Shown here one piece after another: positions 3,214 to 64,000 of a stretch of DNA of 64,000 bases. The DNA comes from a virus. Its lineage: Duplodnaviria > Caudoviricetes. The stretch lies in the IMG/VR virus record IMGVR_UViG_3300028920_000023; one strand, given 5' to 3'. The first letter of the stretch is position 1. Each line of letters begins with the position of its first letter. Under the pieces are notes generated by a model. That model was not told the origin of the DNA and searched no databases. It saw nothing but the letters and a program-made list of their open reading frames with translations. The position numbers and the translations under genes were made by a program.

Positions 3214-3556
3214 TCGTGTCCGCCTTTTCTGTCTTCATCGTCTCTAATATCATCCGACGCAGAGGCGTAATCATCTTCCTGACCTCATTAAGGCCATTCC
3301 TAGCCCTTCGGCCTGCGGATTTATTATTACCATCAATAGATTTCTGGGCATTTGAGGCAATATCTTGTGCCACGTCAATAAGCTTCTGGAGCTCAGGATC
3401 ATATTCCTCAGTGACCTGTACCACATCCGTATCGACTTCCGCTGGTTTTCCTTCTGACATAGCTTTCTGAGCCTCCACGCAACCTTTGAGATGAAGATTA
3501 AACCCAGCGGAACTCGTACAGAGTTTACCGCATACGCATTGATGGAATTTGTTCAT
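3149..3556 (-). CDS. Hc1/histone H1-like small DNA-binding protein with an N-terminal Cys/His cluster
   Basis: GNNKSAGRRARNGLNEVRKMITPLRRMI resembles the GNKAAGTRARK motif of bacterial Hc1-like proteins. The start at 3556 overlaps the upstream stop (ATGA). Confidence 0.55.
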   Translation of the reverse strand: MNKFHQCVCGKLCTSSAGFNLHLKGCVEAQKAMSEGKPAEVDTDVVQVTEEYDPELQKLIDVAQDIASNAQKSIDGNNKSAGRRARNGLNEVRKMITPLRRMILETMKTEKADTNGTDADTSGTETPSGTETPAS

Positions 3557-6069
3557 ACCGACTCGGGATCTGTAGTTGAACAGGCATCGGGAGGCAAACA
3601 CATCCTATAAGTAACCGAGATAACACCAGTAATCCTACCAGGTCTTCTAACAGAATCCCAAAGACCAGCAAGAACGACCGCATCAACAGGCTCATCTCCA
3701 CTCTGATCATCACCTAAAATATTGATATAATGATCAAGCTTGATGTACTGTGTCAATGGATCAATATTATTGTCGTCATCCCGACCACCCGGATTATTAG
3801 CCTCCAGCCCATTGGTTACCGAAGTCACAAAATCCTGCACGTCACGAGTTATATACCTACCATCCCTAACAACCTGAGATCTAGTCAACAGATTACCGGC
3901 ATCATCATACTTATACTCATCATACAACGGAGGCGGATTCGCAGTACGATCACCATCCGGATCCACATGTGCACCATCAGGCCAAACATTACCCTTCGTG
4001 GAGACCCTAGCTATAATCCTCTTATGCTGAGAATCCAAAATCTCATAAGCATCACCAACAGCAGGACGATCAGTACCATCACCAAGCGTAGGCCAAGGAC
4101 GACGCAAAATCAAAGTATCAGAAGTATTATCACGAATAGTCCTACTAACACCAGCGAAAGCACCATCAACCATCGTAACCCGATAACCATTATTAGCAGG
4201 AAAATCCCCACCATCATCATTATCGCGTTCACGCCACTGACCAGCAACCCAAGACTGACCAGAATCAATCAAATTACGCCTAGTAGAAGCAACCTGAGTA
4301 ACAGTCCCAGAACCATCCGCAGGAGGACCATCCGGAGTAGTAGAAGACAAAGCCGTCAAACTATCACTCAAATTATTATGAATCGTATGACCATCACCAC
4401 GAAGATTATCCCTCTTATTCTCATAAGGTTCCCGATCACCAGGCCACTCCTGACGAGTAGACCTATTAGACACCGGATCACCCTGACGACGCTCAAGCGT
4501 AACCAAATCGAAAGTATAATAATTCCTCAAAGAATACTCAGCATTCGAAGAATTACGCGCAACACGAACAGCCGCAGTCAAATCCAACAAATACATATTC
4601 ACAGCCTGCCTATGAACCTTCACAGGCGTCAAATACTCATAATCCTTATTAATATTACCACGGAACTGCTGAGTATGACTCCTGCCAATAATAGGAACAG
4701 TCAACTGGAAAATATCAACACTCACCCACGCCCCAGTCTCCAGCGGGTCTAAAGAACGAACAACATCCGGATCATAATACCACTGAATATTCCTAGAAGT
4801 ATCAAACCAAACCCTACAATCCGGAACAGCCGCATTAGAATCCCCAGAAGTAGCCGGAATCTCAGGACAATCACGCTGAACACAAATAGCAGACTCACCA
4901 CCAACCGAAACCGGCAACCACCCAGTATTACCACCATCATTAAACACCTTCACCCACAAAGTATCATTCTCAGTGGGCTCATCAGAACCAACCGCATCAC
5001 CACTACTCCGACCATAAATCGCACCAATCGGAGCATAAACATAACCCTCAGGACTACCAGCACCAAACTTTACATTGTCGCCAGTAACGAATCCAGAAAT
5101 ATTAGCAGTAGCATTTCCAGGAGCATTAGCAGCATTACTAACACTCCCAGCGATAATATGATTCGTAGCAACCACATCACCATAGACATCCAAACCCTCT
5201 TTAGAAAAAATGCCACGAACACCAGGACACTCACCAGCCTCGCCCGTATAAAACCTAATCGTCCCATCAGAAACCGTATCACCATCAACCCGCAACTCAA
5301 TAGCACAAGAACCATGCGCAGTAGGAGAATCTATACCACACTCAGCAGTCTCCTGAAACTGCACATTCTGACTAATAAACGAATGCTCAGAATCATCACC
5401 AGAAAAACCAACCATAGACTGAAAACGACCAAAAGTCTGACCCGACTGAACACGATACTCACGATTGCCACCAACGCTATCTAAATAAACATCCCCACCA
5501 GAAACCCACAACCTATTACCAAGACCACTAGAAACCTCACCAGTACCAATAAGAACATTACCCTCAGAATCACCACGCATCAACTCAGAAATAACACCAT
5601 CAGAATCCGTAGTAGCAAACTGAATATAACCAGACTTATCACCATCAACATCATTCTCCTTACGACCAGCAATAGTAGCAAAAGCAAAAGCCGAATAATC
5701 AGACTCAGCAGAACGACCACTAAACCTCAACTGAGGGCCAACATCCTTAGCAGGACAATTACAACTAATAAGACGAATATTACCAGCCAACTCACCAGAA
5801 TCAACAACATCAGATTCTAACTGGAAACCAGCACTACTACGATAAATCTTCTGGCCAAAAATCTCAAACTGATCTGAGTAAGTATCTACAAAGACTTTCT
5901 CAGTAGAACCCGTACCACCCCTGGAAATACCCAGAGGCTGGTCAGAATCCGCAATGGCATTAGTCAGAGCTAACTGATAAGCCTGTTCAGCCTTATCCGC
6001 AACCTCTTGGATAAGATCCTCATAACGCCTAATCCCATCACGACTATTCTCGCCCATAATCACCCCCAT
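3553..6069 (-). CDS. large (838 aa) putative virion/tail-fibre-related protein
   Basis: Long ORF rich in Gly/Ser/Asp/Thr and beta-type segments, with a WFDTSRNIQWYY segment of the kind seen in fibre proteins. The function is inferred. Confidence 0.5.
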   Translation of the reverse strand: MGVIMGENSRDGIRRYEDLIQEVADKAEQAYQLALTNAIADSDQPLGISRGGTGSTEKVFVDTYSDQFEIFGQKIYRSSAGFQLESDVVDSGELAGNIRLISCNCPAKDVGPQLRFSGRSAESDYSAFAFATIAGRKENDVDGDKSGYIQFATTDSDGVISELMRGDSEGNVLIGTGEVSSGLGNRLWVSGGDVYLDSVGGNREYRVQSGQTFGRFQSMVGFSGDDSEHSFISQNVQFQETAECGIDSPTAHGSCAIELRVDGDTVSDGTIRFYTGEAGECPGVRGIFSKEGLDVYGDVVATNHIIAGSVSNAANAPGNATANISGFVTGDNVKFGAGSPEGYVYAPIGAIYGRSSGDAVGSDEPTENDTLWVKVFNDGGNTGWLPVSVGGESAICVQRDCPEIPATSGDSNAAVPDCRVWFDTSRNIQWYYDPDVVRSLDPLETGAWVSVDIFQLTVPIIGRSHTQQFRGNINKDYEYLTPVKVHRQAVNMYLLDLTAAVRVARNSSNAEYSLRNYYTFDLVTLERRQGDPVSNRSTRQEWPGDREPYENKRDNLRGDGHTIHNNLSDSLTALSSTTPDGPPADGSGTVTQVASTRRNLIDSGQSWVAGQWRERDNDDGGDFPANNGYRVTMVDGAFAGVSRTIRDNTSDTLILRRPWPTLGDGTDRPAVGDAYEILDSQHKRIIARVSTKGNVWPDGAHVDPDGDRTANPPPLYDEYKYDDAGNLLTRSQVVRDGRYITRDVQDFVTSVTNGLEANNPGGRDDDNNIDPLTQYIKLDHYINILGDDQSGDEPVDAVVLAGLWDSVRRPGRITGVISVTYRMCLPPDACSTTDPESV

Positions 6070-6099: not shown

Positions 6100-6387
6100 C
6101 TAGAATAAAACACCCTCATTATCGATACACATAACATCCCGATAATCAATAAAAGCATAATCTGCACGATGTGGATCCTTCCTATCCGGCTCAATAATAT
6201 GGACAGGACAATGAAACTCAAAATAAGGACCCTCCTTATTAACCAGGATCCTATCACCAACCTCCAAACCAGAGACACCGCAGCCAATACCGACCACGGT
6301 GCCTCTAGAAGCATCTCCCTCTGATTCAAGCCTAATCAAGATATACGAGCCATAAGGCTTAACGGGCAATTCATTCTTCATCTTCAT
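6100..6387 (-). CDS. groES: GroES/Cpn10-like protein lacking the mobile loop
   Basis: VKPYGSYILIR...GTVVGIGCG...LEVGDRILV...FIDYRDVM follows the GroES pattern (iKPL.DRVLV..G.VVAVG.G..VkVGD.Vl..i..eDIL). Confidence 0.65.
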   Translation of the reverse strand: MKMKNELPVKPYGSYILIRLESEGDASRGTVVGIGCGVSGLEVGDRILVNKEGPYFEFHCPVHIIEPDRKDPHRADYAFIDYRDVMCIDNEGVLF

Positions 6388-7423
6388 GGAGTTCAGCAGC
6401 AGCCAAACAACCCTTGCTCACAGCGTGCAGAGGATCCGCAGCATGGCGAATCTCACCAATAGGAATCTGCAAATCATCCTTCTTCCTACCAAATTCTTTC
6501 CTCAAAAGATCAATAAAACCCTTAGGCATAGAAGTACCACCAGCATTAATAACCGGAACCGGCTCCGGAAACCTCACCTTATCGCGATTCTCATTAAAAC
6601 CACGAACAATACCATTAACAACATTCTCAATCATAATCTCATACATAATCTTAATAGTCTGATCAACCTTATTATCATAATTCATCAAAGACAAATCAAT
6701 CTTCTGCTTAGCATGAGCAATCGTAGTCGGAGTCTCAGCATAATCACCATTCGGATTAGACGGATCATAGCCAAACCGAACAGCCGCATCAGAATCCACC
6801 CTATCACCCGCACCAACCAAACAAAACTCAAAAATCGGAACACCAGCAAAACCAGCATGCACAGTAATCGTACCAGCACCCCAACTAATCCCAATAGCAG
6901 GACCAATCTCATCTAAAACCAAACACCTAGCCTCATTAATATGAAAAGCACTAATCTTACCACCACCAACAAACTTCTCAACCAACAACTTCACAATCTT
7001 CTTATGAAAATCAACATTCAAACGCTCATCATTCAAAGCCTTAGCCGTAGTACAATAATACAAAACCGTATCATCCTTCACATCCTGCCCCAACGCATTC
7101 ATAATAATCGACTTAACAATAATAGCCATAATCTCCTGAGCATTCTCATCCGTCTTAGAAACACCACCCTCAGCCATCGGGCGCTGTAAAGTCTTATTAA
7201 ACATATAAGCCAACTTCTCAGCCTTAGAGCCAATAGCAATCAACTGATCGCCATAAGGAACATAAGGAACACCCTGTTTCTTAAGAAGATTCTCAGTAAA
7301 TTTATCACCCCTACGCAAATCAATATAACCATTCACCTCATGAATGCTCTTAACCTCACCATCTTCCGTTTTCCAGGACAACACAATGTGCTTAGTACCT
7401 AAATCAAGTCCTAATCTATCCAT
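6371..7423 (-). CDS. actin-fold ATPase (MreB/FtsA/ParM-like)
   Basis: Phosphate-1 GLDLGTKH, connect-1 INEARC, phosphate-2-like GISWGAGT, adenosine NAGGTS, connect-2 PLHAVSKG. The ORF track extends to 7684, but that part overlaps another ORF; the Met at 7423 is the more likely start. Confidence 0.82.
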   Translation of the reverse strand: MDRLGLDLGTKHIVLSWKTEDGEVKSIHEVNGYIDLRRGDKFTENLLKKQGVPYVPYGDQLIAIGSKAEKLAYMFNKTLQRPMAEGGVSKTDENAQEIMAIIVKSIIMNALGQDVKDDTVLYYCTTAKALNDERLNVDFHKKIVKLLVEKFVGGGKISAFHINEARCLVLDEIGPAIGISWGAGTITVHAGFAGVPIFEFCLVGAGDRVDSDAAVRFGYDPSNPNGDYAETPTTIAHAKQKIDLSLMNYDNKVDQTIKIMYEIMIENVVNGIVRGFNENRDKVRFPEPVPVINAGGTSMPKGFIDLLRKEFGRKKDDLQIPIGEIRHAADPLHAVSKGCLAAAELHEDEE

Positions 7424-37206: not shown

Positions 37207-37539
37207 ATGAGGCGATTTGTATTTGGTTTGGTTTGTTTGTTGTGTCTGTTTGTTTTTGTCGGTTGTAATGATGCTACTGTTGTTTCAAATAATCTGTCGA
37301 AAGCTGCGGATAATTTTGAGGTTATACGTAGAATTGTGTTCTATAATGGTATAACTGGAGAATATATATTCGTTATTGAGGGTGCCTGTTCGATCGCAGA
37401 CCAGGGCAGTCAGCTGGAGGTCACGGTTAAAACGGGTGAGAATGAGTATAAGAAACACTTTCTTGGACTTTCCGATAACGTAACATATTTTGCTGAACAA
37501 ATTGAACCAAAGAAGACAGATAGTATCATTATAGTGTAA
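37207..37539 (+). CDS. phage lipoprotein
   Basis: Signal with lipobox FVGC; ADNFEVIRRIVFYNGITG...YKKHFLGLSDNVTYF resembles a widespread phage lipoprotein family. Confidence 0.75.
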   Translation: MRRFVFGLVCLLCLFVFVGCNDATVVSNNLSKAADNFEVIRRIVFYNGITGEYIFVIEGACSIADQGSQLEVTVKTGENEYKKHFLGLSDNVTYFAEQIEPKKTDSIIIV

Positions 37540-37592: not shown

Positions 37593-37805
37593 ATGATAAT
37601 TTATGGGGTATTCAAGCGCCATAAATTCGGTTTACGTTTGCAGGATTTATTCCTAAAGCGGGAACATGCAGCGAGTTTCATTAATTTGCAGTGTAATTCG
37701 AAGGGCGTTAGATGCCGATGGAGCGAGATTAAGGGTGGTGAATGGGAGATACTTCCGGTACGTGTGAATACCCGTGATATCACGAAATCAATCCAAATGC
37801 TCTAA
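37593..37805 (+). CDS. small hypothetical protein (70 aa)
   Basis: ORF track; weak support. Confidence 0.4.
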   Translation: MIIYGVFKRHKFGLRLQDLFLKREHAASFINLQCNSKGVRCRWSEIKGGEWEILPVRVNTRDITKSIQML

Positions 37806-37843
37806 CTACTTTTGTTTTTTCTGTTATCTGGTATGTATCGTAT

Positions 37844-37997
37844 GTGGTGGTTCTTTGACAATCTAGTCCTGTGGGTTTTCAGGCTACACGGTCGCCTAGA
37901 GATTATCCAGAAGTGATAATCGAAGATGAACCATGGGGTTCCGCCCAGCACGCATCACCCACAGGAATGCTTATCCCGCGTGTGTACGGGCGCGTGG
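37844..37997 (+). repeat. 154-bp block (structured leader plus first repeat), copy 1
   Basis: Identical to 38464-38617 (offset 620 bp). Confidence 0.92.
37867..37966 (+). ncRNA. candidate tracrRNA/omegaRNA-like scaffold, copy 1
   Basis: A 10-bp closing stem TCCTGTGGGT/ACCCACAGGA encloses hairpins AGGC/GCCT, GATTATC/GATAATC and GAACC/GGTTC, plus a possible anti-repeat CGCCCAGCACGC. Confidence 0.65.
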
Positions 37998-38407
37998 CCA
38001 GGGGAATTGGCCGTCCGCACTAGTTTAGAACCTATCCCGCGTGTGTACGGGCGCGTGGTCGGACAATCATCGGCCTGATATATGTTCCGCGTGCGTACGG
38101 GCGCGTGGCGTGAGCGCAACCGTCCAGAACCACAGTGTTTGGTCCGCGTGCGTTGGGCGCGTGGAAAGTCCCGAATGATGCCCACCCGTTCCTCCGGTTT
38201 GGTCCGCGTGCGTATGGGCGCGTGGGAAAATATGCATCAGAAAGGCGTTTCTCGTCAGTTTGGTCCGCGTGCGTACGGGCGCGTGGCAGAGCCAAACAAC
38301 GGGACACAGAAGAATGCCATCTGATCTGCGTGTGTACGGGCGCGTGGACAGGACAAAAAAGAGCCACGGAAGACAGCAGTTTGGTCCGCGTGCATACGGG
38401 CGTGTGG
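37969..38407 (+). CRISPR. CRISPR-like array A: 8 repeats, 7 spacers (32, 21, 28, 32, 32, 32, 31 nt)
   Basis: Consensus repeat GTTTGGTCCGCGTG(T/C)GTACGGGCGCGTGG (29 nt), with a conserved 3' 22-nt hairpin core and unique spacers. Confidence 0.9.
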
Positions 38408-38463
38408 TATGGTGGATTTATCGAGTCACTTTCATCTTTTGGATTGTCTGGTATTCCGTAGTC

Positions 38464-38617
38464 GTGGTGGTTCTTTGACAATCTAGTCCTGTGGGTTTTC
38501 AGGCTACACGGTCGCCTAGAGATTATCCAGAAGTGATAATCGAAGATGAACCATGGGGTTCCGCCCAGCACGCATCACCCACAGGAATGCTTATCCCGCG
38601 TGTGTACGGGCGCGTGG
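38464..38617 (+). repeat. 154-bp block (structured leader plus first repeat), copy 2
   Basis: Identical to 37844-37997. Confidence 0.92.
38487..38586 (+). ncRNA. candidate tracrRNA/omegaRNA-like scaffold, copy 2
   Basis: Same stems as copy 1. Confidence 0.65.
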
Positions 38618-39318
38618 GACAAAGACGAAAAGTGAATAGGTATTCTCACACCTATCCCGCGTGTGTACGGGCGCGTGGCTTGGCTCCTGTTACTGAGAGC
38701 CAAACTAAGACTCGGGCCTCACCGTTTGGTCCGCGTGTGTACGGGCGCGTGGAACCCTGGACCCGTACAGTACTTCAGCGCGTTGTTTGGTCCGCGTGTG
38801 TACGGGCGCGTGGGAATGCTGAGAGACAGAGGAAATGGCACTGGAGTTTGGTCCGCGTGTGTACGGGCGCGTGGAGGTCTTGCTGATCTGTAATGGGAAG
38901 CCATCTGTTTGGTCCGCGTGTGTACGGGCGCGTGGGAGATCCCGGTCGCGGGTGGTCCGGCAGGGTAATGTTTGGTCCGCGTGTATACGGGCGCGTGGGG
39001 TCGATGGTTGTCCTGCTTCGTTTTAGCTCAGTTTGGTCCGCGTGTATACGGGCGCGTGGCTGGCAGACCTCATCTGGTCTTCCTGCAAAGCGTTTGGTCC
39101 GCGTGCGTACGGGCGCGTGGTGAGGCCAGGGGTATTATCCAAGCATTCCAAAGGGTCCGCGTGCGTACGGGCGCGTGGGTAGACGAGGCCGCTAAGGATC
39201 TGCCCCGCGTGGAGGCCGCGATCGAACGTAATGACCCAGGCAACTGTCCAGCGTGTGTACGGGCGCGTGGCTCCTTCAAGAACCCATTGGTCTGTCCCGC
39301 GTGCGTACGGGCGCGTGG
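38589..39318 (+). CRISPR. CRISPR-like array B: 12 full repeats plus 1 collapsed repeat; spacers mostly 32 nt (range about 19-45)
   Basis: Same repeat; period about 61 bp; degenerates toward the 3' end. Confidence 0.92.
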
Positions 39319-39337
39319 TATGGTGGATTTATCGATC

Positions 39338-39418
39338 GCGGGGACATGGCATGGCCGCTGGGACCGGGAAAGCGCGCCCGGCTCTCGAAGTGAGGTTCGA
39401 TTCCTCCGCCCTGCACCA
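39338..39418 (+). tRNA. tRNA-like element with a non-canonical anticodon arm
   Basis: Acceptor-like stem GCGGGGA/GCCCTGC plus A-CCA end; T-loop GAGG-TTCGATT-CCTC. The central hairpin CCGGG/CCCGG has an 8-nt loop that does not fit the anticodon consensus. Confidence 0.4.
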
Positions 39419-39513
39419 ATTTAGAGCGACTTCACCCACCAAAAATCTCGGACGTTGATGCACAAGTTTCACATATAACACACAACGATACAAAATATCA
39501 AAGGAGAACAACC

Positions 39514-41211
39514 ATGGCCAAGAAGAAAGACACACACGCACACACAGAACATTACTACGTCAGCATCAAAGACCCCACAAAGGAACAGACATATAACAAC
39601 AAAGGAGAACCAGAAAAAGACACAGAACTATACGAGCAAGTAATGACAGATATTCGGATGTACCGCAAAACAACACAAAAACTAGGCGCATTCTATCTAG
39701 TGCACCTCTTCGCCACAGCCCAAACAGACCTAGATAACCTCGCAGAACAAATCGACAAAAATGAAGCACTCGACGTAATGCGAGAATCACTAAGATCCAA
39801 CGTCAAACGACTACTAGGCAAACAAGACAGACTCGACGAAGCCCTCCAAGAAGCAGAAGTAGCATTCACAGAAGCCTGTATCGACCTAGAAACAGCAGGA
39901 GAAGTAAAACCAACACAAAAACAGAAACTAGAAGCAGCTGTACGCAAAGCCGAGAAACAATACGAACAAATCAGAAAGAAACACCCAACAACCGCCATAC
40001 AAGACGCAGAAGAACAAGTCCAAAAAGCCAAAGCAACCTACGCCAAAACCAAAACCAAAGACGACCTCGAAGCGCTCAGGAACGCAGAAACACGCCTCAG
40101 AGGAATCAAGAAAAGAACCGAAGAAGAAGCACGCAGAATCGAAGCACTACGCCAAAATGGCAAGATATTGACAGTCAAAGAAACAGAAAGAGCCTACATC
40201 CACGGCTACCTGATGCCAGAATGGAAGCCGTTCATAGCCGAATCCATCACAAGCACAACACGCGGCATCCTACACAGAATCATGGGCTCCAAAGACCCAG
40301 AAATAACAAACCTGCCCAGAGAATACCTAGCAGCCAACGGCGTAAGAGGCACCCCAGAATTCAAAGAAATCGGAATAGAAATCAAGAACACCGAATATAG
40401 ACCCACAGAAGACGGATTTGGAATATTAACAGAAATACGCAAAGGACAACCAATAGAACTAAGATTCTATAGAAAGAGAAGAAAAGGCAAGAAAATGAAA
40501 ATGGACCCACACAAATTCTTTATACTCAAGAAACTAGGATTCATACCAAACCAAAACGGAGAAAGAAAAGCCGACTGGAAACCAGGAACATGTTTCCTCA
40601 CAACAGACCGTCAAGGAAAACGCCTAGCAATAAGACTAACCTACACCAGACCAAACAAACAAAGAAACCTAAACCCAGACCGCACAATGCGAGTAGACTT
40701 CCACGAAGACCTATATAACAAAGACAAATACATGTGCATGCACATGGAAAGCGGCTTCCTACCAACAGACAACGTCAGCTACCTCGCATCACTAGACCAA
40801 GTCAAAAACACAACATGGTCCTCCAAAACCATGTACGAAGACATGCGAGGACTAAACCAACAGAAACTCGAAATAGAACAATTATGGAGAAACAAAAGCA
40901 CTAACAGGCACGTAAGAGAAAGATTATCCAAAAGGAAACAGAACCTACAAAAGAGACAAACCGGAACCCAAAGACGATGGCGAGGAACAATAAACCAAAC
41001 CATCCGCAAACAAGCAGAAAGATGGAACTGTGGCAAAATCATAATGGGGCACCTACCAGACAAATTCTATGGCTTCCCATGGCCACAAAGTAACTTCAAG
41101 CTAGCCCTAACATCCAAACTCAAAGAATACGGAATACAAATCACCTGGATAGACGATGTCAAGGTAGGAAAAACCAAAACAAAACGCAAAAAAGAACCCG
41201 TCTGTCTCTAA
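39514..41211 (+). CDS. TnpB/Cas12-like (type V-like) RNA-guided effector, predicted nuclease-dead (565 aa)
   Basis: WED-like segments (PEFKEIGIEIKN; GTCFLTTDRQGKRLAIRLTY); RuvC-I-like LNPDRTMRVDF; bridge-helix-like segment; RuvC-II-like QAERWNCGKIIMGHL; WPQSNFKLALTSKLKEYGIQITWI; adjacent to the arrays; AAGGAG RBS. Confidence 0.75.
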   Translation: MAKKKDTHAHTEHYYVSIKDPTKEQTYNNKGEPEKDTELYEQVMTDIRMYRKTTQKLGAFYLVHLFATAQTDLDNLAEQIDKNEALDVMRESLRSNVKRLLGKQDRLDEALQEAEVAFTEACIDLETAGEVKPTQKQKLEAAVRKAEKQYEQIRKKHPTTAIQDAEEQVQKAKATYAKTKTKDDLEALRNAETRLRGIKKRTEEEARRIEALRQNGKILTVKETERAYIHGYLMPEWKPFIAESITSTTRGILHRIMGSKDPEITNLPREYLAANGVRGTPEFKEIGIEIKNTEYRPTEDGFGILTEIRKGQPIELRFYRKRRKGKKMKMDPHKFFILKKLGFIPNQNGERKADWKPGTCFLTTDRQGKRLAIRLTYTRPNKQRNLNPDRTMRVDFHEDLYNKDKYMCMHMESGFLPTDNVSYLASLDQVKNTTWSSKTMYEDMRGLNQQKLEIEQLWRNKSTNRHVRERLSKRKQNLQKRQTGTQRRWRGTINQTIRKQAERWNCGKIIMGHLPDKFYGFPWPQSNFKLALTSKLKEYGIQITWIDDVKVGKTKTKRKKEPVCL

Positions 41212-43356: not shown

Positions 43357-45009
43357 TCAGGTCTCAACAGACTCCCTAAACCACTCGGGAAACAAATAAC
43401 TATCCTGATAAAACAACCTAAAAAACTGCGAATCTAAAACATAAGTATCCGAACGATCATTCTCATGACGCACAGTCCGACCACAAGACTGCAATAACTT
43501 AGTAACAGTCCTCCAAGAATAATAACCAGGAGACAACTCCATCCTAGCAGCAATCTGCGGATCATTCTTAGGCGGGTAAGGAATCTTACAAATAATCTGA
43601 AACCTACCCAAATCATCCTTCAAATCCAAACCCTCATGCATCGCAGGAGCAATAATCACACTATCGCGAGTATTCTTATGCTTCTCCAAAAGAACCCGCT
43701 TATCACCAGAAAATTCCGGAGAATTCTGATAAAGGAACCTACACCTAACATCCTTATCACACTCCTTTAACAACATCCTACAAATCTCAAAATTATGAGT
43801 ATGAATAATACCCCTCTTCCCCTCATAAGACTTACAAATCATATTCACACAATCAATCAACTTAGGAAAAACCTTCTCCTTATTATTATAAGTAATAGGA
43901 CCACAATCACTAACATACACCGGGCGATTCTTAGCAGGAAACGTACTAGAGACCCTAATCAGCTTAGCCTCATCCCTAGGAATAGCCAAAGCATCGCAAA
44001 TAATATTCTTAGACAAAATAGTAGCACTCATAAACAAAAATTTATCAGCATAAACATACAAATACTTGTTCACAAAATCATCAACAAAAATAGGCTTAAA
44101 AGTAACCGACCTAAACAAACCATCAGCTTTAACCTTAAACTCACAAACCCACTTACTTGGATCAGACTTCATAAACATAGAAAACTTATGCTGCAACCTT
44201 TTCCACAAATCAACAGCATCTAAGTCCTCAGTCAATTTAGCAATGTGCAAATTAGACTCAATACGCTCCAATAAATTAATATCCGTGAAAAACTCAATAT
44301 ACTCAGCCGGCGAATCTAACTCCGGAAATTCTATGCCCCTGAAATCTTTATCATTAAGAGAAATCTCAATAAACTGAAGAAGAACATCCTCAGTACCATG
44401 GGCCTCATCAATAATCATCAATTCACGTGGACCAAACTGCTTAGAAAAAGCAGACTGATACAAAAAAGAATGAAAATTCATAAGACAAATATTACTAGCC
44501 TTAGCCTTCCACAACTGCAAATAATAAGCACAAGTAAACTTCCCAAGCTCCGTACAATATTTCAACTTAGACTCATCCTTCCTCTTACACTCACCCTTAT
44601 CACAACGCACATCCTGGCGAGATAAATCCCGATACCTAGACAAATCCCCAGGATCAACAGAAAAAGTCGGATCATTCAAAACCTGCTCATAATATTCACA
44701 CGGATAAGCATTTCTTCCCTTCAATTCCACCATCGGGTAAGAAGACAAATGCTTACCGCCCTCACCAAAATCCGCACTTAACTGATCTTGGAGGAACTTC
44801 TGAGGTGCTAAATAAAAGGAATTCTTAGCAAGCTGCGCTATAGTATATCCTATAGCGCTTTTACCAGCTCCGGTCGGTGCCTCGATAAATACAAACCGGC
44901 AACCTTGTTTAAAAAATTCGAGCGCCTTCCTAATTACCTCGAATTGTCCAGAACGATAAGAAGACATCGGAAAGATTTCATCAACAACTTCATCATTAAC
45001 ATCAAGCAT
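43357..45009 (-). CDS. dinG: DinG/XPD-family SF2 helicase
   Basis: IEAPTGAGKS, Cys cluster, IIDEAH, FMSAT, EGLDL, QSCGRTVRHEND. Confidence 0.88.
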   Translation of the reverse strand: MLDVNDEVVDEIFPMSSYRSGQFEVIRKALEFFKQGCRFVFIEAPTGAGKSAIGYTIAQLAKNSFYLAPQKFLQDQLSADFGEGGKHLSSYPMVELKGRNAYPCEYYEQVLNDPTFSVDPGDLSRYRDLSRQDVRCDKGECKRKDESKLKYCTELGKFTCAYYLQLWKAKASNICLMNFHSFLYQSAFSKQFGPRELMIIDEAHGTEDVLLQFIEISLNDKDFRGIEFPELDSPAEYIEFFTDINLLERIESNLHIAKLTEDLDAVDLWKRLQHKFSMFMKSDPSKWVCEFKVKADGLFRSVTFKPIFVDDFVNKYLYVYADKFLFMSATILSKNIICDALAIPRDEAKLIRVSSTFPAKNRPVYVSDCGPITYNNKEKVFPKLIDCVNMICKSYEGKRGIIHTHNFEICRMLLKECDKDVRCRFLYQNSPEFSGDKRVLLEKHKNTRDSVIIAPAMHEGLDLKDDLGRFQIICKIPYPPKNDPQIAARMELSPGYYSWRTVTKLLQSCGRTVRHENDRSDTYVLDSQFFRLFYQDSYLFPEWFRESVET

Positions 45010-45023
45010 GGCGAGTTCTCACA

Positions 45024-46106
45024 ATGGGCAAAATACTAATCACAGCGGATATCCACAACGGCATACCAGGGAAATTGGACGACACACTCTGGGCCATGAA
45101 AATCATGAGCGATTATGCCGAAAAACACGATATCAAAAAAGTTCTGGTATTAGGTGATCTCTTTCACGACCGTGTCAACCTTAATATCGAGGTCTACAGC
45201 CGCGTCTATGATCTAATGGAACAAGCCAAAGAAAAACAACAAGAATGGATCTGCTTCCCAGGCAACCACGATATGTACCTCAAAAACTCCTGGGACGTAA
45301 ACTCGGTACACCCCCTACGCCACGTCATGAAAGTAATAGAAAACACAGACATAATAAAACTATACGAACAGAGATTCCATATCCTGCCCTTTGTACACCG
45401 CGAACAAGAATATATGGAAATATTGTCAGAACTAAACCAAGCAGCCACAGAAGACGATATAATGCTCACGCACATTGGGGTAAGCGGAGCAACAATGAAC
45501 ATCTGCTTCCTAATACAAAACTGGAACACAGTCAACTTCTCACAAACCAAATACAAAAGAATCTACACAGGACACTTCCACTGCCACCAACAAGTAGGAG
45601 AAAAACTATGGTACCCAGGAAGCCCAATACCATTCAGATTCGATGAAGGAGAAGCAGACCACGGATTCATAATATACGACACCGAAGAAAACGAACACCA
45701 ATTCATAAAAACATTCGACATCTACCAAGAATTCTCAGACACAAGACCACCAGATTATATAACCATAGTCGATACAGATATAGAAGAACTAGCAGAAATA
45801 GCCAAAGACAATAAAGTCAAGGTCCTCATAACACAGGACCACACAAGTAACGAACTGCTAGATATAAAGAAAGCACTGGAAGACGAGGGAGCCATAACAG
45901 TAAAATTCGGCGACCAAAAAGAAGCGCCAGAAGAGAACAAAGTGCAGGACCAAATACAAAACTCAGGAAAAATCGAAGACATATTCCAATCCTGGATAGA
46001 TAACAACAGCCCAAAATGGGCCGACAGAGACACAATGTTAGCATGCTTCGAGGACATCAGACAAGAAGCAGAAGAAAAATACACAGCCGAGACCGAAGAT
46101 GATTGA
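45024..46106 (+). CDS. sbcD: Mre11/SbcD-like metallophosphoesterase nuclease
   Basis: TADIH, LGDLFH, PGNHD, THIG, YTGHFH. Confidence 0.92.
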   Translation: MGKILITADIHNGIPGKLDDTLWAMKIMSDYAEKHDIKKVLVLGDLFHDRVNLNIEVYSRVYDLMEQAKEKQQEWICFPGNHDMYLKNSWDVNSVHPLRHVMKVIENTDIIKLYEQRFHILPFVHREQEYMEILSELNQAATEDDIMLTHIGVSGATMNICFLIQNWNTVNFSQTKYKRIYTGHFHCHQQVGEKLWYPGSPIPFRFDEGEADHGFIIYDTEENEHQFIKTFDIYQEFSDTRPPDYITIVDTDIEELAEIAKDNKVKVLITQDHTSNELLDIKKALEDEGAITVKFGDQKEAPEENKVQDQIQNSGKIEDIFQSWIDNNSPKWADRDTMLACFEDIRQEAEEKYTAETEDD

Positions 46107-48456
46107 AATAAAAGAACTCTACCTCAGAAACTTCCTATCCTATGGCGATTACGACACCGTCATAAACCTAGAAGGCCTAGGACCCCTACTTATCCTAGGC
46201 GAAATAGACGGAGACGAAGAAAGGAAAAACTCCAACGGATCAGGAAAAAGCACAATACCAGACGCAATAATCTGGGCACTATTCGGAAGATTACCCTACA
46301 AAGACAGACCAGCAGACCACGTAATAAACTGGGAAACAGGCAAAAACTGTATCGTAAGAGTAAAAACCAAAGACGGATATACAATAACACGAACCAGAAA
46401 AATGGAAAACAGCAACGACCTCCTCATACACCAACCAAACGGAGACGACATATCAAGCGCCACAAACACTAACGCACAAAAGAAATTAGAGAAACTATTC
46501 GACCTAGACTACGAAATATTCGTATCAAGCATGTTCTTCACACAATTCGACAAACCACTACTAGAAAAATCCGACATCAAACGCAAAAAAGCCCTAGAAA
46601 GGATGCTAGGACTACAGAAATACGAAGCATACGCCCAAGTAGCCAAAGAAAGAGCCAGCATAGCAGAAGAAGAACAATCCAAACTAAGAGCAGCCTACGA
46701 AGAACTAGAACAACAAACAATAAGAATCGGCCAAAGAATCGAAGAAACAAAACAAGAACAAAGAGAATACCAACAACAAAAACAACACAGAATATCCGAA
46801 AAAACACAACAAAAGAAAGACACAGACAAAATATACGACGAAAAAGCCAAACAAGCAAGAGAACAACTAGAAACCGCAGAAAAAGAAAGAGACGCAATAA
46901 AAACATACGACATAAAAGACCTAGAGAAAAAATGGAAAAGACACCAAAGCCAACTAGACAAAATAACACAATCAATAGCCGAAAAAGACAAACTAACACA
47001 AGAACTGCACGCAGAGCAGACCAAACTAGAAATCTATGAAAAAGAAGATCCACAGACAACAATCGAAGAAGACATCAAACGAATAAAAACACGACTCGAA
47101 GAAGCAGAAAAACAATCAGAAAACTCGAAAACATACAACATACCAGAACTACGAAAAACAGAACGAACAAGACAAGAAAGAATAAAAGAAAAACAAGAAC
47201 TCCAAGAAGAATTAAACTACGTAGAAACAAAGAAATATCACAAACAAGAAGAACAAAAAAGACTACAGAACACCCTAGACCAATGGTCAGAACAATGGTC
47301 AGAAAAATCAATATGCCCAGAATGTGAACAAGAAGTAACCAAAGAACATATCGATACAAAAATCAAACAATTAAAAGACAAAATTAAAACTATCACAGAA
47401 GAAATAAAAGAACTAGAAAACACAGCACACCAAATCAAAGAAGCAATAAAAAATTACGTTATAGAAGACCCAGAAATAACTATTGAGCAAGCAAACCGTA
47501 TAAACGAAATGACAGAACAAAGAAAAGAACAAATAAAAATCATCCAGGAAGACCTCGCCACAGCCATAAACAGACGAAAAGATCTAGATAAACTAAAAAT
47601 AGAAAAACACAGGATCATATCCAACGCCACATCCAGGATAGAACAATTAGAATCCGAAATACAAATCAGAGAAACAGGAATAGAAAAACTCAAGAAAAGA
47701 GCAGAGGAAAAAGAACCAAAACCAACACTAATCGAAGCCCAAAATATCCAAAACCAATTCAATGAGAAAGACAGAGAAGTACAAAACATACGCTCCAAAA
47801 TAGAAGAATATTATGAACGCAAAAAAGAAGAAAAAGAAAGACTCACAAAAGAAATAGAAGACATAAAGAAAGAAAAAGACCCATACGACAACATAATCAA
47901 CAAACTCGGTCTAGATCTAAAAGAAACCAGAAAGAAATTAACAGAATCCAAAGCAATTGTCGATGGTTACGATATGTTAGTAAAACACCTAGGATTCATC
48001 AGAAGATCATTCTCGGATAGGAATAAAATCAAAGCATATACAGTAAAACGACTAATCCCACATCTAAACGAGAGAATAACTTATTATTTACAGGCAATGG
48101 GCTGTGACTTCAGGCTTGAATTTAACGAGTATCTACAAGCCAAAACAGAAACATATCCGTATGAGTTCTGGTCCGGAGGAGAACGAAGAAGGATCGACTT
48201 AGCATTAATGCTAGCGATACACAAGCTGCACAATCTGATATATTCCAGACAATGCAATATTTTGGTATTTGATGAGGTAGAAAGATCTTTGGAACCAAGT
48301 GGGATAGAAGCATTCGTGGAACTAATATTTAATGAATTCAACGATAAAACTGTTCTGGTCATCTCTCATTCAGATCAGATGAGAGATGCCTTCCCAACCA
48401 AAATGCTAGTCCGTAGGAAAAGTAGATATGCTTCCATTATAGAAGAAGTTCGGTAA
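46099..48456 (+). CDS. sbcC: Rad50/SbcC-like ABC ATPase
   Basis: Walker A NGSGKS, long coiled coil with a CPEC zinc hook, signature WSGGE, Walker B VFDE, ISH. Confidence 0.93.
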   Translation: MIEIKELYLRNFLSYGDYDTVINLEGLGPLLILGEIDGDEERKNSNGSGKSTIPDAIIWALFGRLPYKDRPADHVINWETGKNCIVRVKTKDGYTITRTRKMENSNDLLIHQPNGDDISSATNTNAQKKLEKLFDLDYEIFVSSMFFTQFDKPLLEKSDIKRKKALERMLGLQKYEAYAQVAKERASIAEEEQSKLRAAYEELEQQTIRIGQRIEETKQEQREYQQQKQHRISEKTQQKKDTDKIYDEKAKQAREQLETAEKERDAIKTYDIKDLEKKWKRHQSQLDKITQSIAEKDKLTQELHAEQTKLEIYEKEDPQTTIEEDIKRIKTRLEEAEKQSENSKTYNIPELRKTERTRQERIKEKQELQEELNYVETKKYHKQEEQKRLQNTLDQWSEQWSEKSICPECEQEVTKEHIDTKIKQLKDKIKTITEEIKELENTAHQIKEAIKNYVIEDPEITIEQANRINEMTEQRKEQIKIIQEDLATAINRRKDLDKLKIEKHRIISNATSRIEQLESEIQIRETGIEKLKKRAEEKEPKPTLIEAQNIQNQFNEKDREVQNIRSKIEEYYERKKEEKERLTKEIEDIKKEKDPYDNIINKLGLDLKETRKKLTESKAIVDGYDMLVKHLGFIRRSFSDRNKIKAYTVKRLIPHLNERITYYLQAMGCDFRLEFNEYLQAKTETYPYEFWSGGERRRIDLALMLAIHKLHNLIYSRQCNILVFDEVERSLEPSGIEAFVELIFNEFNDKTVLVISHSDQMRDAFPTKMLVRRKSRYASIIEEVR

Positions 48457-55627: not shown

Positions 55628-64000
<8,373 letters not shown>

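Follow-up and report, generated by a model that had tools for sequence, protein, structure and literature searches.

The window analysed here, a 64-kb stretch of DNA that is part of a giant phage, contains two tandem plus-strand units between an RDF-like gene (37207-37539) and a 565-aa open reading frame (39514-41211), each consisting of a non-repeat element, referred to here as the scaffold, and an array of repeats (Table 1). The scaffold and the first 29-nt repeat of its array together make up a 154-nt exact duplicate (37844-37997 and 38464-38617; 100% identity, family D3), of which the scaffold accounts for 125 nt. While the flanks and spacers differ between the two units, these 154 nt were kept identical, so that the same scaffold-plus-repeat segment lies upstream of the P0001 gene at the head of both the 8-repeat and the 12-repeat array.

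Table 1 Features of the scaffold-array locus in the window and of the related modules in locus L004
Feature	Position	Strand	Remarks
Scaffold copy 1	37844-37968	+	125 nt, abuts repeat 1
Scaffold copy 2	38464-38588	+	100% identical to copy 1 (family D3)
Array 1	37969-38407	+	8 repeats of 29 nt, spacers ~32 nt
Array 2	38589-39318	+	12 repeats, final two irregular; spacers ~32 nt
Candidate anti-repeat, copy 1 (CGCCC and GCACGC around a single A; CGCCCAGCACGC)	37942-37953	+	best 12-nt scaffold match to the repeat
Candidate anti-repeat, copy 2	38562-38573	+	identical to copy 1, part of the 154-nt exact duplicate
CCAUG, possible short anti-repeat to the last 5 nt of the repeat (CGUGG)	37931-37935	+	5 bp, one of them G-U, directly at the spacer; not significant
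P0001, Cas12f-like protein of 565 aa, dead RuvC motifs, truncated C-terminus	39514-41211	+	presumed guide-RNA user
L004 scaffold-plus-mini-array modules	3520-3802, 5213-5586, 6261-6541		three copies, scaffold ~130 nt

Within the repeat, the 22 nt at the 3' end form an 8-bp hairpin that directly adjoins the spacer (-11.8 to -14.0 kcal/mol) and has GCGUG in both arms. Because three of its pairs are G-U, this hairpin exists only on the plus strand. The first two repeats of each array (37969-38058 and 38589-38678) carry the 5' heptamers GCTTATC and ACCTATC and later repeats carry GTTTGGT; the 22-nt core is constant despite this change, and the first spacers of arrays 1 and 2 differ. Comparison of the 20 spacers with the rest of the 64-kb window revealed no convincing match (best 13-16 nt with 1-2 mismatches, E ~1 or worse). 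Each array is followed by a shared 17-nt tail, TATGGTGGATTTATCGA (38408-38424 and 39319-39335), which bears a loose resemblance to the beginning of the scaffold region (TATGTGGTGGTTC), holds a near copy of the GATTATC hairpin arm and may be the stub of another scaffold copy. A tRNA-like ending, with a GGTTCGATTCC T-loop, an acceptor 3' strand and CCA, lies at 39338-39418, where neither ARAGORN nor Rfam calls anything. Across the entire window, ARAGORN reported no tRNA and Rfam had no matches when run at gathering thresholds; relaxing the Rfam cutoff to E<=5 for 37780-39450 gave a meaningless miRNA match as the sole result.

An AlphaFold model of P0001 (mean pLDDT 69) gave Cas12f and dCas12f structures as top Foldseek matches (E 1.5e-11 to 1e-8), with Cas12m2 structures among the weaker ones (E 5e-6). 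We found 66 remote homologues, all with at most 32% identity, and as close relatives only identical copies. In the alignment of the relatives, acidic residues are absent at the presumed RuvC motif positions and the proteins end soon after the last conserved block; P0001 is predicted from its sequence to be nuclease-dead. A published group of dead Cas12f homologues includes members near CRISPR arrays (PMC13472631), and the P0001 locus is consistent with this group. Compared with the sigma-E dCas12f proteins, P0001 has an extra N-terminal extension of ~230 aa. No sigma-factor domain was detected in the adjacent 264-aa open reading frame or in the other scanned neighbours.

The surroundings of the locus are phage genes. 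A protein identical to P0001 is encoded on a 354,787-bp contig, and the other P0001-bearing contigs represent the same phage (no more than 1 mismatch over 8.7-10.9 kb). The minus strand encodes a helicase of 550 aa at 43357-45009 that fits the PADLOC model of the type IV-A-associated DinG (E 1.5e-61). This DinG-like gene is 2 kb away from the gene for the dead Cas12f-like protein, has SbcCD-like genes (45024-48456) as neighbours, and may simply encode a phage replication or repair helicase.

We scanned contig collections for the repeat pattern. Viral contigs yielded nothing; genome contigs, among the matches listed, and metagenome contigs yielded only single chance matches in GC-rich DNA, and no arrays. 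Likewise, the viral, genome (among the matches listed) and metagenome collections revealed no diverged relative of either the scaffold or the repeat of the window, and the two copies in the window are identical. The closest relative of P0001, P0002, shares 32% identity with it. P0068, which is 61% identical to P0002, is encoded on a 1.9-kb contig (L007) without arrays. On both sides of its gene (1-290 and 1668-1937), GCGTGAG or GCGTGGG recurs every 20-30 nt, and the GGGCCAAGTGGCCC hairpin occurs three times on this contig, with no conventional array. The homologue loci L005, L006 and L008 contained no arrays.

Two further homologue loci carry arrays. The first, the metagenomic locus L004, encodes P0003, a singleton with 27% identity to P0001, and contains three scaffold-plus-mini-array modules, each with 3-4 repeats of 29 nt and spacers of 32 nt, i.e. 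with the same 61-nt period as in the window. One of the module copies overlaps the 3' end of the effector gene region. As in the window, a homologous effector is thus accompanied by several copies of a conserved scaffold directly before the mini-arrays; the scaffold sequences themselves do not align, and a MAFFT comparison was uninformative. In the second locus, L131 (2225-2675), the P0017 gene is followed by 161 nt and then by an array of at least five 32-nt repeats, within which the contig ends.

Scaffold copy 1 has a minimum free energy (MFE) of -41.3 kcal/mol (z -2.45; 2/200 shuffles fold as well), and its predicted structure comprises a 10-bp closing stem (37867-37876 with 37957-37966) that encloses hairpins. 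Because it folds better than shuffles, has been kept identical and adjoins a gene of a large-guide-RNA protein family, the scaffold is probably a real RNA. The same 125 nt could, however, be a mere CRISPR leader, supplying a promoter and integration signals to an effector that uses short crRNAs, and any complementarity to the repeat would then be irrelevant. Arrays within one genome typically share a conserved leader, and the element is indeed conserved between arrays, directly before the first repeat, in both the window and L004. Moreover, Cas12a, Cas12j and Cas12m use short crRNAs composed of a repeat hairpin and a spacer, and a 3'-end repeat hairpin flush with the spacer, as seen here, is typical of crRNA-only type V effectors; Cas12m2 is also among the weaker fold matches of P0001. 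In contrast to a leader, the element is structured and not AT-rich, its GC content being similar to that of the arrays; a search of it for a sigma-70-like promoter (a promoter type that may not be the host's) was negative, and no adaptation genes were seen among the scanned neighbours of either the window locus or L004. The best fold matches are furthermore Cas12f proteins, which depend on large RNAs: Cas12f1 functions with a single ~200-nt RNA (PMC12255294), and its tracrRNA:crRNA contains a long repeat/anti-repeat stem and a short stem of 5-7 bp (PMC11246509). Since the effector has a Cas12f fold, the 29-nt repeat alone is unlikely to suffice, and a role of the element as leader only appears improbable to us.

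The candidate anti-repeat CGCCCAGCACGC was present in both scaffold copies at the positions given in the original prediction (Table 1). A sliding 12-nt RNAduplex scan ranked it first among all scaffold sites for pairing with the repeat (-17.2 kcal/mol with the T and -18.8 kcal/mol with the C variant of the repeat), and it is the best compact repeat-complementary site of the 125 nt. The proposed pairing was reproduced as well: GCACGC forms 6 bp with GCGUG(C/U) and CGCCC forms 5 bp with GGGCG, separated by a 1x4 internal loop in which a single scaffold nucleotide faces four nucleotides (GUAC) of the repeat. Both repeat variants can pair, the T variant through a G-U pair, because the opposite scaffold base is a G. 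As the variants also preserve the repeat hairpin, they do not discriminate between the hairpin and the duplex with the scaffold. The 12-mer is located in the 3' third of the scaffold, 24 nt from the paired part of repeat 1.

The segment had also been described as unpaired, which applies to G37948-G37952 and C37942-G37943, whereas the rest of it is paired in the predicted fold and in the ensemble. CCCA (37944-37947) pairs with UGGG (37934-37937), C37953 is part of a GAUG/CAUC helix, and opening of the whole 12-mer costs 5.8 kcal/mol. An alternative GAACC/GGUUC hairpin that leaves the segment free is the fold taken once the segment is forced open, but not the unforced predicted fold.

To assess whether this complementarity exceeds chance, the observed best pairing energies for the T and C repeat variants were compared with those of dinucleotide shuffles of the scaffold. 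With 12-nt windows, 17/200 (T) and 2/200 (C) shuffles paired as well, i.e. 1-8.5%. The fraction rose to 32/200 (T) and 12/200 (C) for 16-nt windows and to 45/200 (T) and 23/200 (C) for 24-nt windows (together 6-23%), and reached 22-39% for the whole scaffold (389/1000 for T, 216/1000 for C). Across the whole 64 kb and both strands, 1.1% of GC-rich 24-nt windows pair with the repeat equally well. In a scaffold-by-repeat matrix based on 16-nt windows, the cognate pair scored -20.2 and the non-cognate L004 scaffold on the window's repeat -20.3. A search for a better anti-repeat elsewhere in the 64 kb returned many chance windows at -26 to -32 kcal/mol, none of them meaningfully placed. The match between 12-mer and repeat is at best marginally better than chance, and an anti-repeat role is for this reason plausible and unproven.

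These numbers lend weight to the possibility that the complementarity is accidental and that the scaffold acts only in cis, with scaffold, repeat 1 and spacer 1 together forming a natural single guide RNA. The 8-bp hairpin of the repeat would then be a functional guide-adjacent stem, the 12-mer part of a scaffold junction or internal loop, and the downstream units unused relics, a reservoir, or handled without base pairing. Besides the shuffle tests, most of which were not significant, and the ~1% of equally good GC-rich windows, a repeat that is GC-rich and nearly palindromic easily finds short complements, and the repeat variants preserve the strand-specific G-U pairs of the hairpin. In line with this, the characterised sigma-E dCas12f proteins work with single guide RNAs, and the search for a tracrRNA of theirs was negative (Hoffmann et al. 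2026, PMC13472631), and one published locus mixes full-length guide RNAs with CRISPR arrays that have scaffold-like repeats (PMC13472631). On the other hand, accidental complementarity would leave 18 well-conserved repeat-spacer units without a route to the scaffold, and the site is still the scaffold's best match, placed like the strong anti-repeat of L004. We regard chance as a serious possibility that falls short of being probable.

The scaffold of L004 contains an anti-repeat (3603-3626) with 15+5 bp to its own repeat, a duplex energy of -34.3 kcal/mol and a net energy of -16 kcal/mol. Only 1/200 shuffles reached this value, and none of 100 did in the scaffold-by-repeat matrix. As a few other windows in L004 as a whole score equally well, we put its p-value at roughly 0.005-0.05. 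The L004 anti-repeat forms in the MFE fold together with repeat 1 and, like the 12-mer, occupies the 3' part of the scaffold, 26 nt from the paired part of repeat 1 compared to 24 nt in the window. In contrast to this significant match, the window has 6+5 bp and a net energy of about 0. The 161 nt between gene and array in L131 showed no long anti-repeat.

According to the original prediction, the hairpin of the repeat could face competition from a duplex between scaffold and repeat. We calculated the balance as the duplex energy plus the cost of opening the scaffold minus the ensemble energy of the repeat hairpin (-11.4 to -14.0 kcal/mol). For a 13-nt site (37942-37954), a duplex energy of -18.3 to -19.9 kcal/mol and an opening cost of +5.8 kcal/mol resulted in a net energy of -1.1 to 0.0 kcal/mol. 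Extension to 24 nt with CCAUG:CGUGG shifted the balance to +1.8 to +2.6 kcal/mol. Competition is thus thermodynamically defensible, but only as a tie (-1.1 to +2.6 kcal/mol), and because the balance for the naked RNA is ~0, the protein would have to choose the conformer. RNAcofold, which had been proposed as a check, never formed the duplex when the scaffold was folded with four repeat-spacer units, and forcing it cost 2-8 kcal/mol. However, this method is biased against the duplex because the closing stem and the duplex cannot be represented together, and the opening-cost balance was therefore used instead.

The scaffold could also meet the repeat in a different register, in which CACGC (37949-37953) would pair with GCGUG in the 3' arm of the repeat, forming a short pseudoknot like that of Cas12f1 or Cas12b in place of pairing with the 5' arm. 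As GCGUG occurs in both hairpin arms, this register gives a 5-bp Watson-Crick match with an offset of 1 from the spacer, and the short stem of Cas12f1 measures 5-7 bp (PMC11246509). A parallel was seen in the two other array-bearing loci, where the loop of a scaffold hairpin complements the final 6-7 nt of the repeat, directly adjoining the spacer. In L004, UCCACC (3528-3533) lies in the 7-nt loop of a GC-rich hairpin, and in L131, CUCUCAG (2305-2311) forms the 7-nt loop of a GGGCC/GGCCC hairpin and matches the last 7 nt of the repeat, an arrangement that recalls the short repeat/anti-repeat pseudoknot of Cas12f1 and Cas12b (PMC11246509). This parallel was noticed after the fact, and the corresponding segment in the window is not in a hairpin loop. 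Moreover, 5 bp is at chance level, as 35% of shuffles yield a flush 5-bp site. A search for a short anti-repeat of 5-7 bp in the window scaffold yielded only chance-level candidates, CCAUG (flush) and CACGC (offset 1), neither convincing, and we consider pairing in this register very unlikely.

Taken together, we favour the interpretation that the 12-mer is a functional, possibly eroded, long anti-repeat, to which we assign a probability of about 40%. In its favour are its position in the scaffold, the analogous element in L004, the precedent in the Cas12f family, and the 18 conserved downstream units, which would otherwise lack a scaffold. Against it stand the weak statistics, the net energy of ~0, the partial pairing of the segment within the scaffold, the well-kept repeat hairpin, the tracrRNA-free characterised dCas12f proteins, and the lack of a long anti-repeat in the 161 nt between gene and array of L131. 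The more general idea that the scaffold is tracr-like gains support from the Cas12f fold of P0001, the repeat/anti-repeat stems of Cas12f1 (PMC11246509) and the strong anti-repeat of L004.

With the 12-mer as an anti-repeat, the scaffold would be transcribed on the plus strand as one RNA with the array, and the 125-nt structured RNA would most likely serve as a tracrRNA- or omegaRNA-like guide body for the phage's predicted nuclease-dead Cas12f-like protein. The 12-mer would represent the counterpart, probably weakened, of the long anti-repeat in Cas12f tracrRNAs and could form its 11-bp interrupted duplex in vivo with the 5' arm and the loop-proximal part of any repeat. Its pairing with repeat 1, which lies 24 nt downstream, would occur in cis and create a pseudoknot that spans the closing stem; the remaining 18 repeat-spacer units would be bound in trans and so be joined to a scaffold. 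The 12-mer may in this way act in guide loading or processing. A broader proposal is that such scaffold-plus-array modules are natural hybrids of the single- and dual-guide formats, in which spacer 1 is used in cis and further units are captured in trans by a bipartite anti-repeat, here poised against the repeat hairpin so that the dead Cas12f-like protein or cell conditions select which guides are loaded; we consider this doubtful.

A tracr-like anti-repeat would be a known kind of feature, in a variant with the scaffold fused upstream of the array, as a duplicated module, in a phage and with a dead Cas12f-like protein. Like type V-F Cas12f1 systems, the window combines a small Cas12f-fold effector with a structured RNA of >100 nt encoded beside an array, a 3' segment of this RNA that is complementary to the repeat, and a guide 3' of the repeat. 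Thus, as expected of a tracrRNA, the scaffold lies beside an array, and the Cas12f-like model of P0001 suggests that the protein belongs to a tracr-dependent effector class. In contrast to Cas12f1, the complementarity in the window comprises only 11 bp, is interrupted and not clearly above chance, and is accompanied by no significant short anti-repeat. The window repeat has a strong hairpin of its own, the scaffold directly adjoins repeat 1, shares its strand and is present in one copy for each array, and the effector is phage-encoded and predicted to be nuclease-dead.

The sigma-E dCas12f systems (PMC13472631; structure preprint 10.1101/2025.06.10.658880) resemble the locus in that their effector is RuvC-dead and C-terminally truncated and their scaffold is contiguous with the first guide. 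Their guide RNAs, however, are 85-105 nt long and encoded downstream of the gene with fixed guides of 14-16 nt (PMC13472631), whereas the RNA in the window lies upstream of the gene and departs from the single-guide format in being followed by arrays of 8 and 12 repeats. Of their operon partner rpoE (sigma-E), no counterpart was seen among the scanned neighbours in the window.

If the anti-repeat reading holds, the window and L004 systems would show how one scaffold lets a nuclease-dead Cas12f-like regulator draw on many array guides. They would stand between the Cas12f nucleases with their dual guides and the sigma-E dCas12f proteins with their fixed single guides, and would provide a compact format for RNA-guided DNA binding that is naturally multiplexed. 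If the complementarity is due to chance, use of the guides is probably limited to spacer 1 in each module, and the arrays have to be explained differently. The comparisons with L004 and L131 and the quantitative controls are the most useful new findings.

Apart from the locus, the end of the window (57175-64000) differs in composition from what precedes it, with the GC content rising from ~0.40 to 0.62. Several frames on both strands remain open there for more than 6 kb, and open reading frames of more than 2100 codons run past the window end. The region represents either foreign DNA or a single gene of very large size and odd composition.
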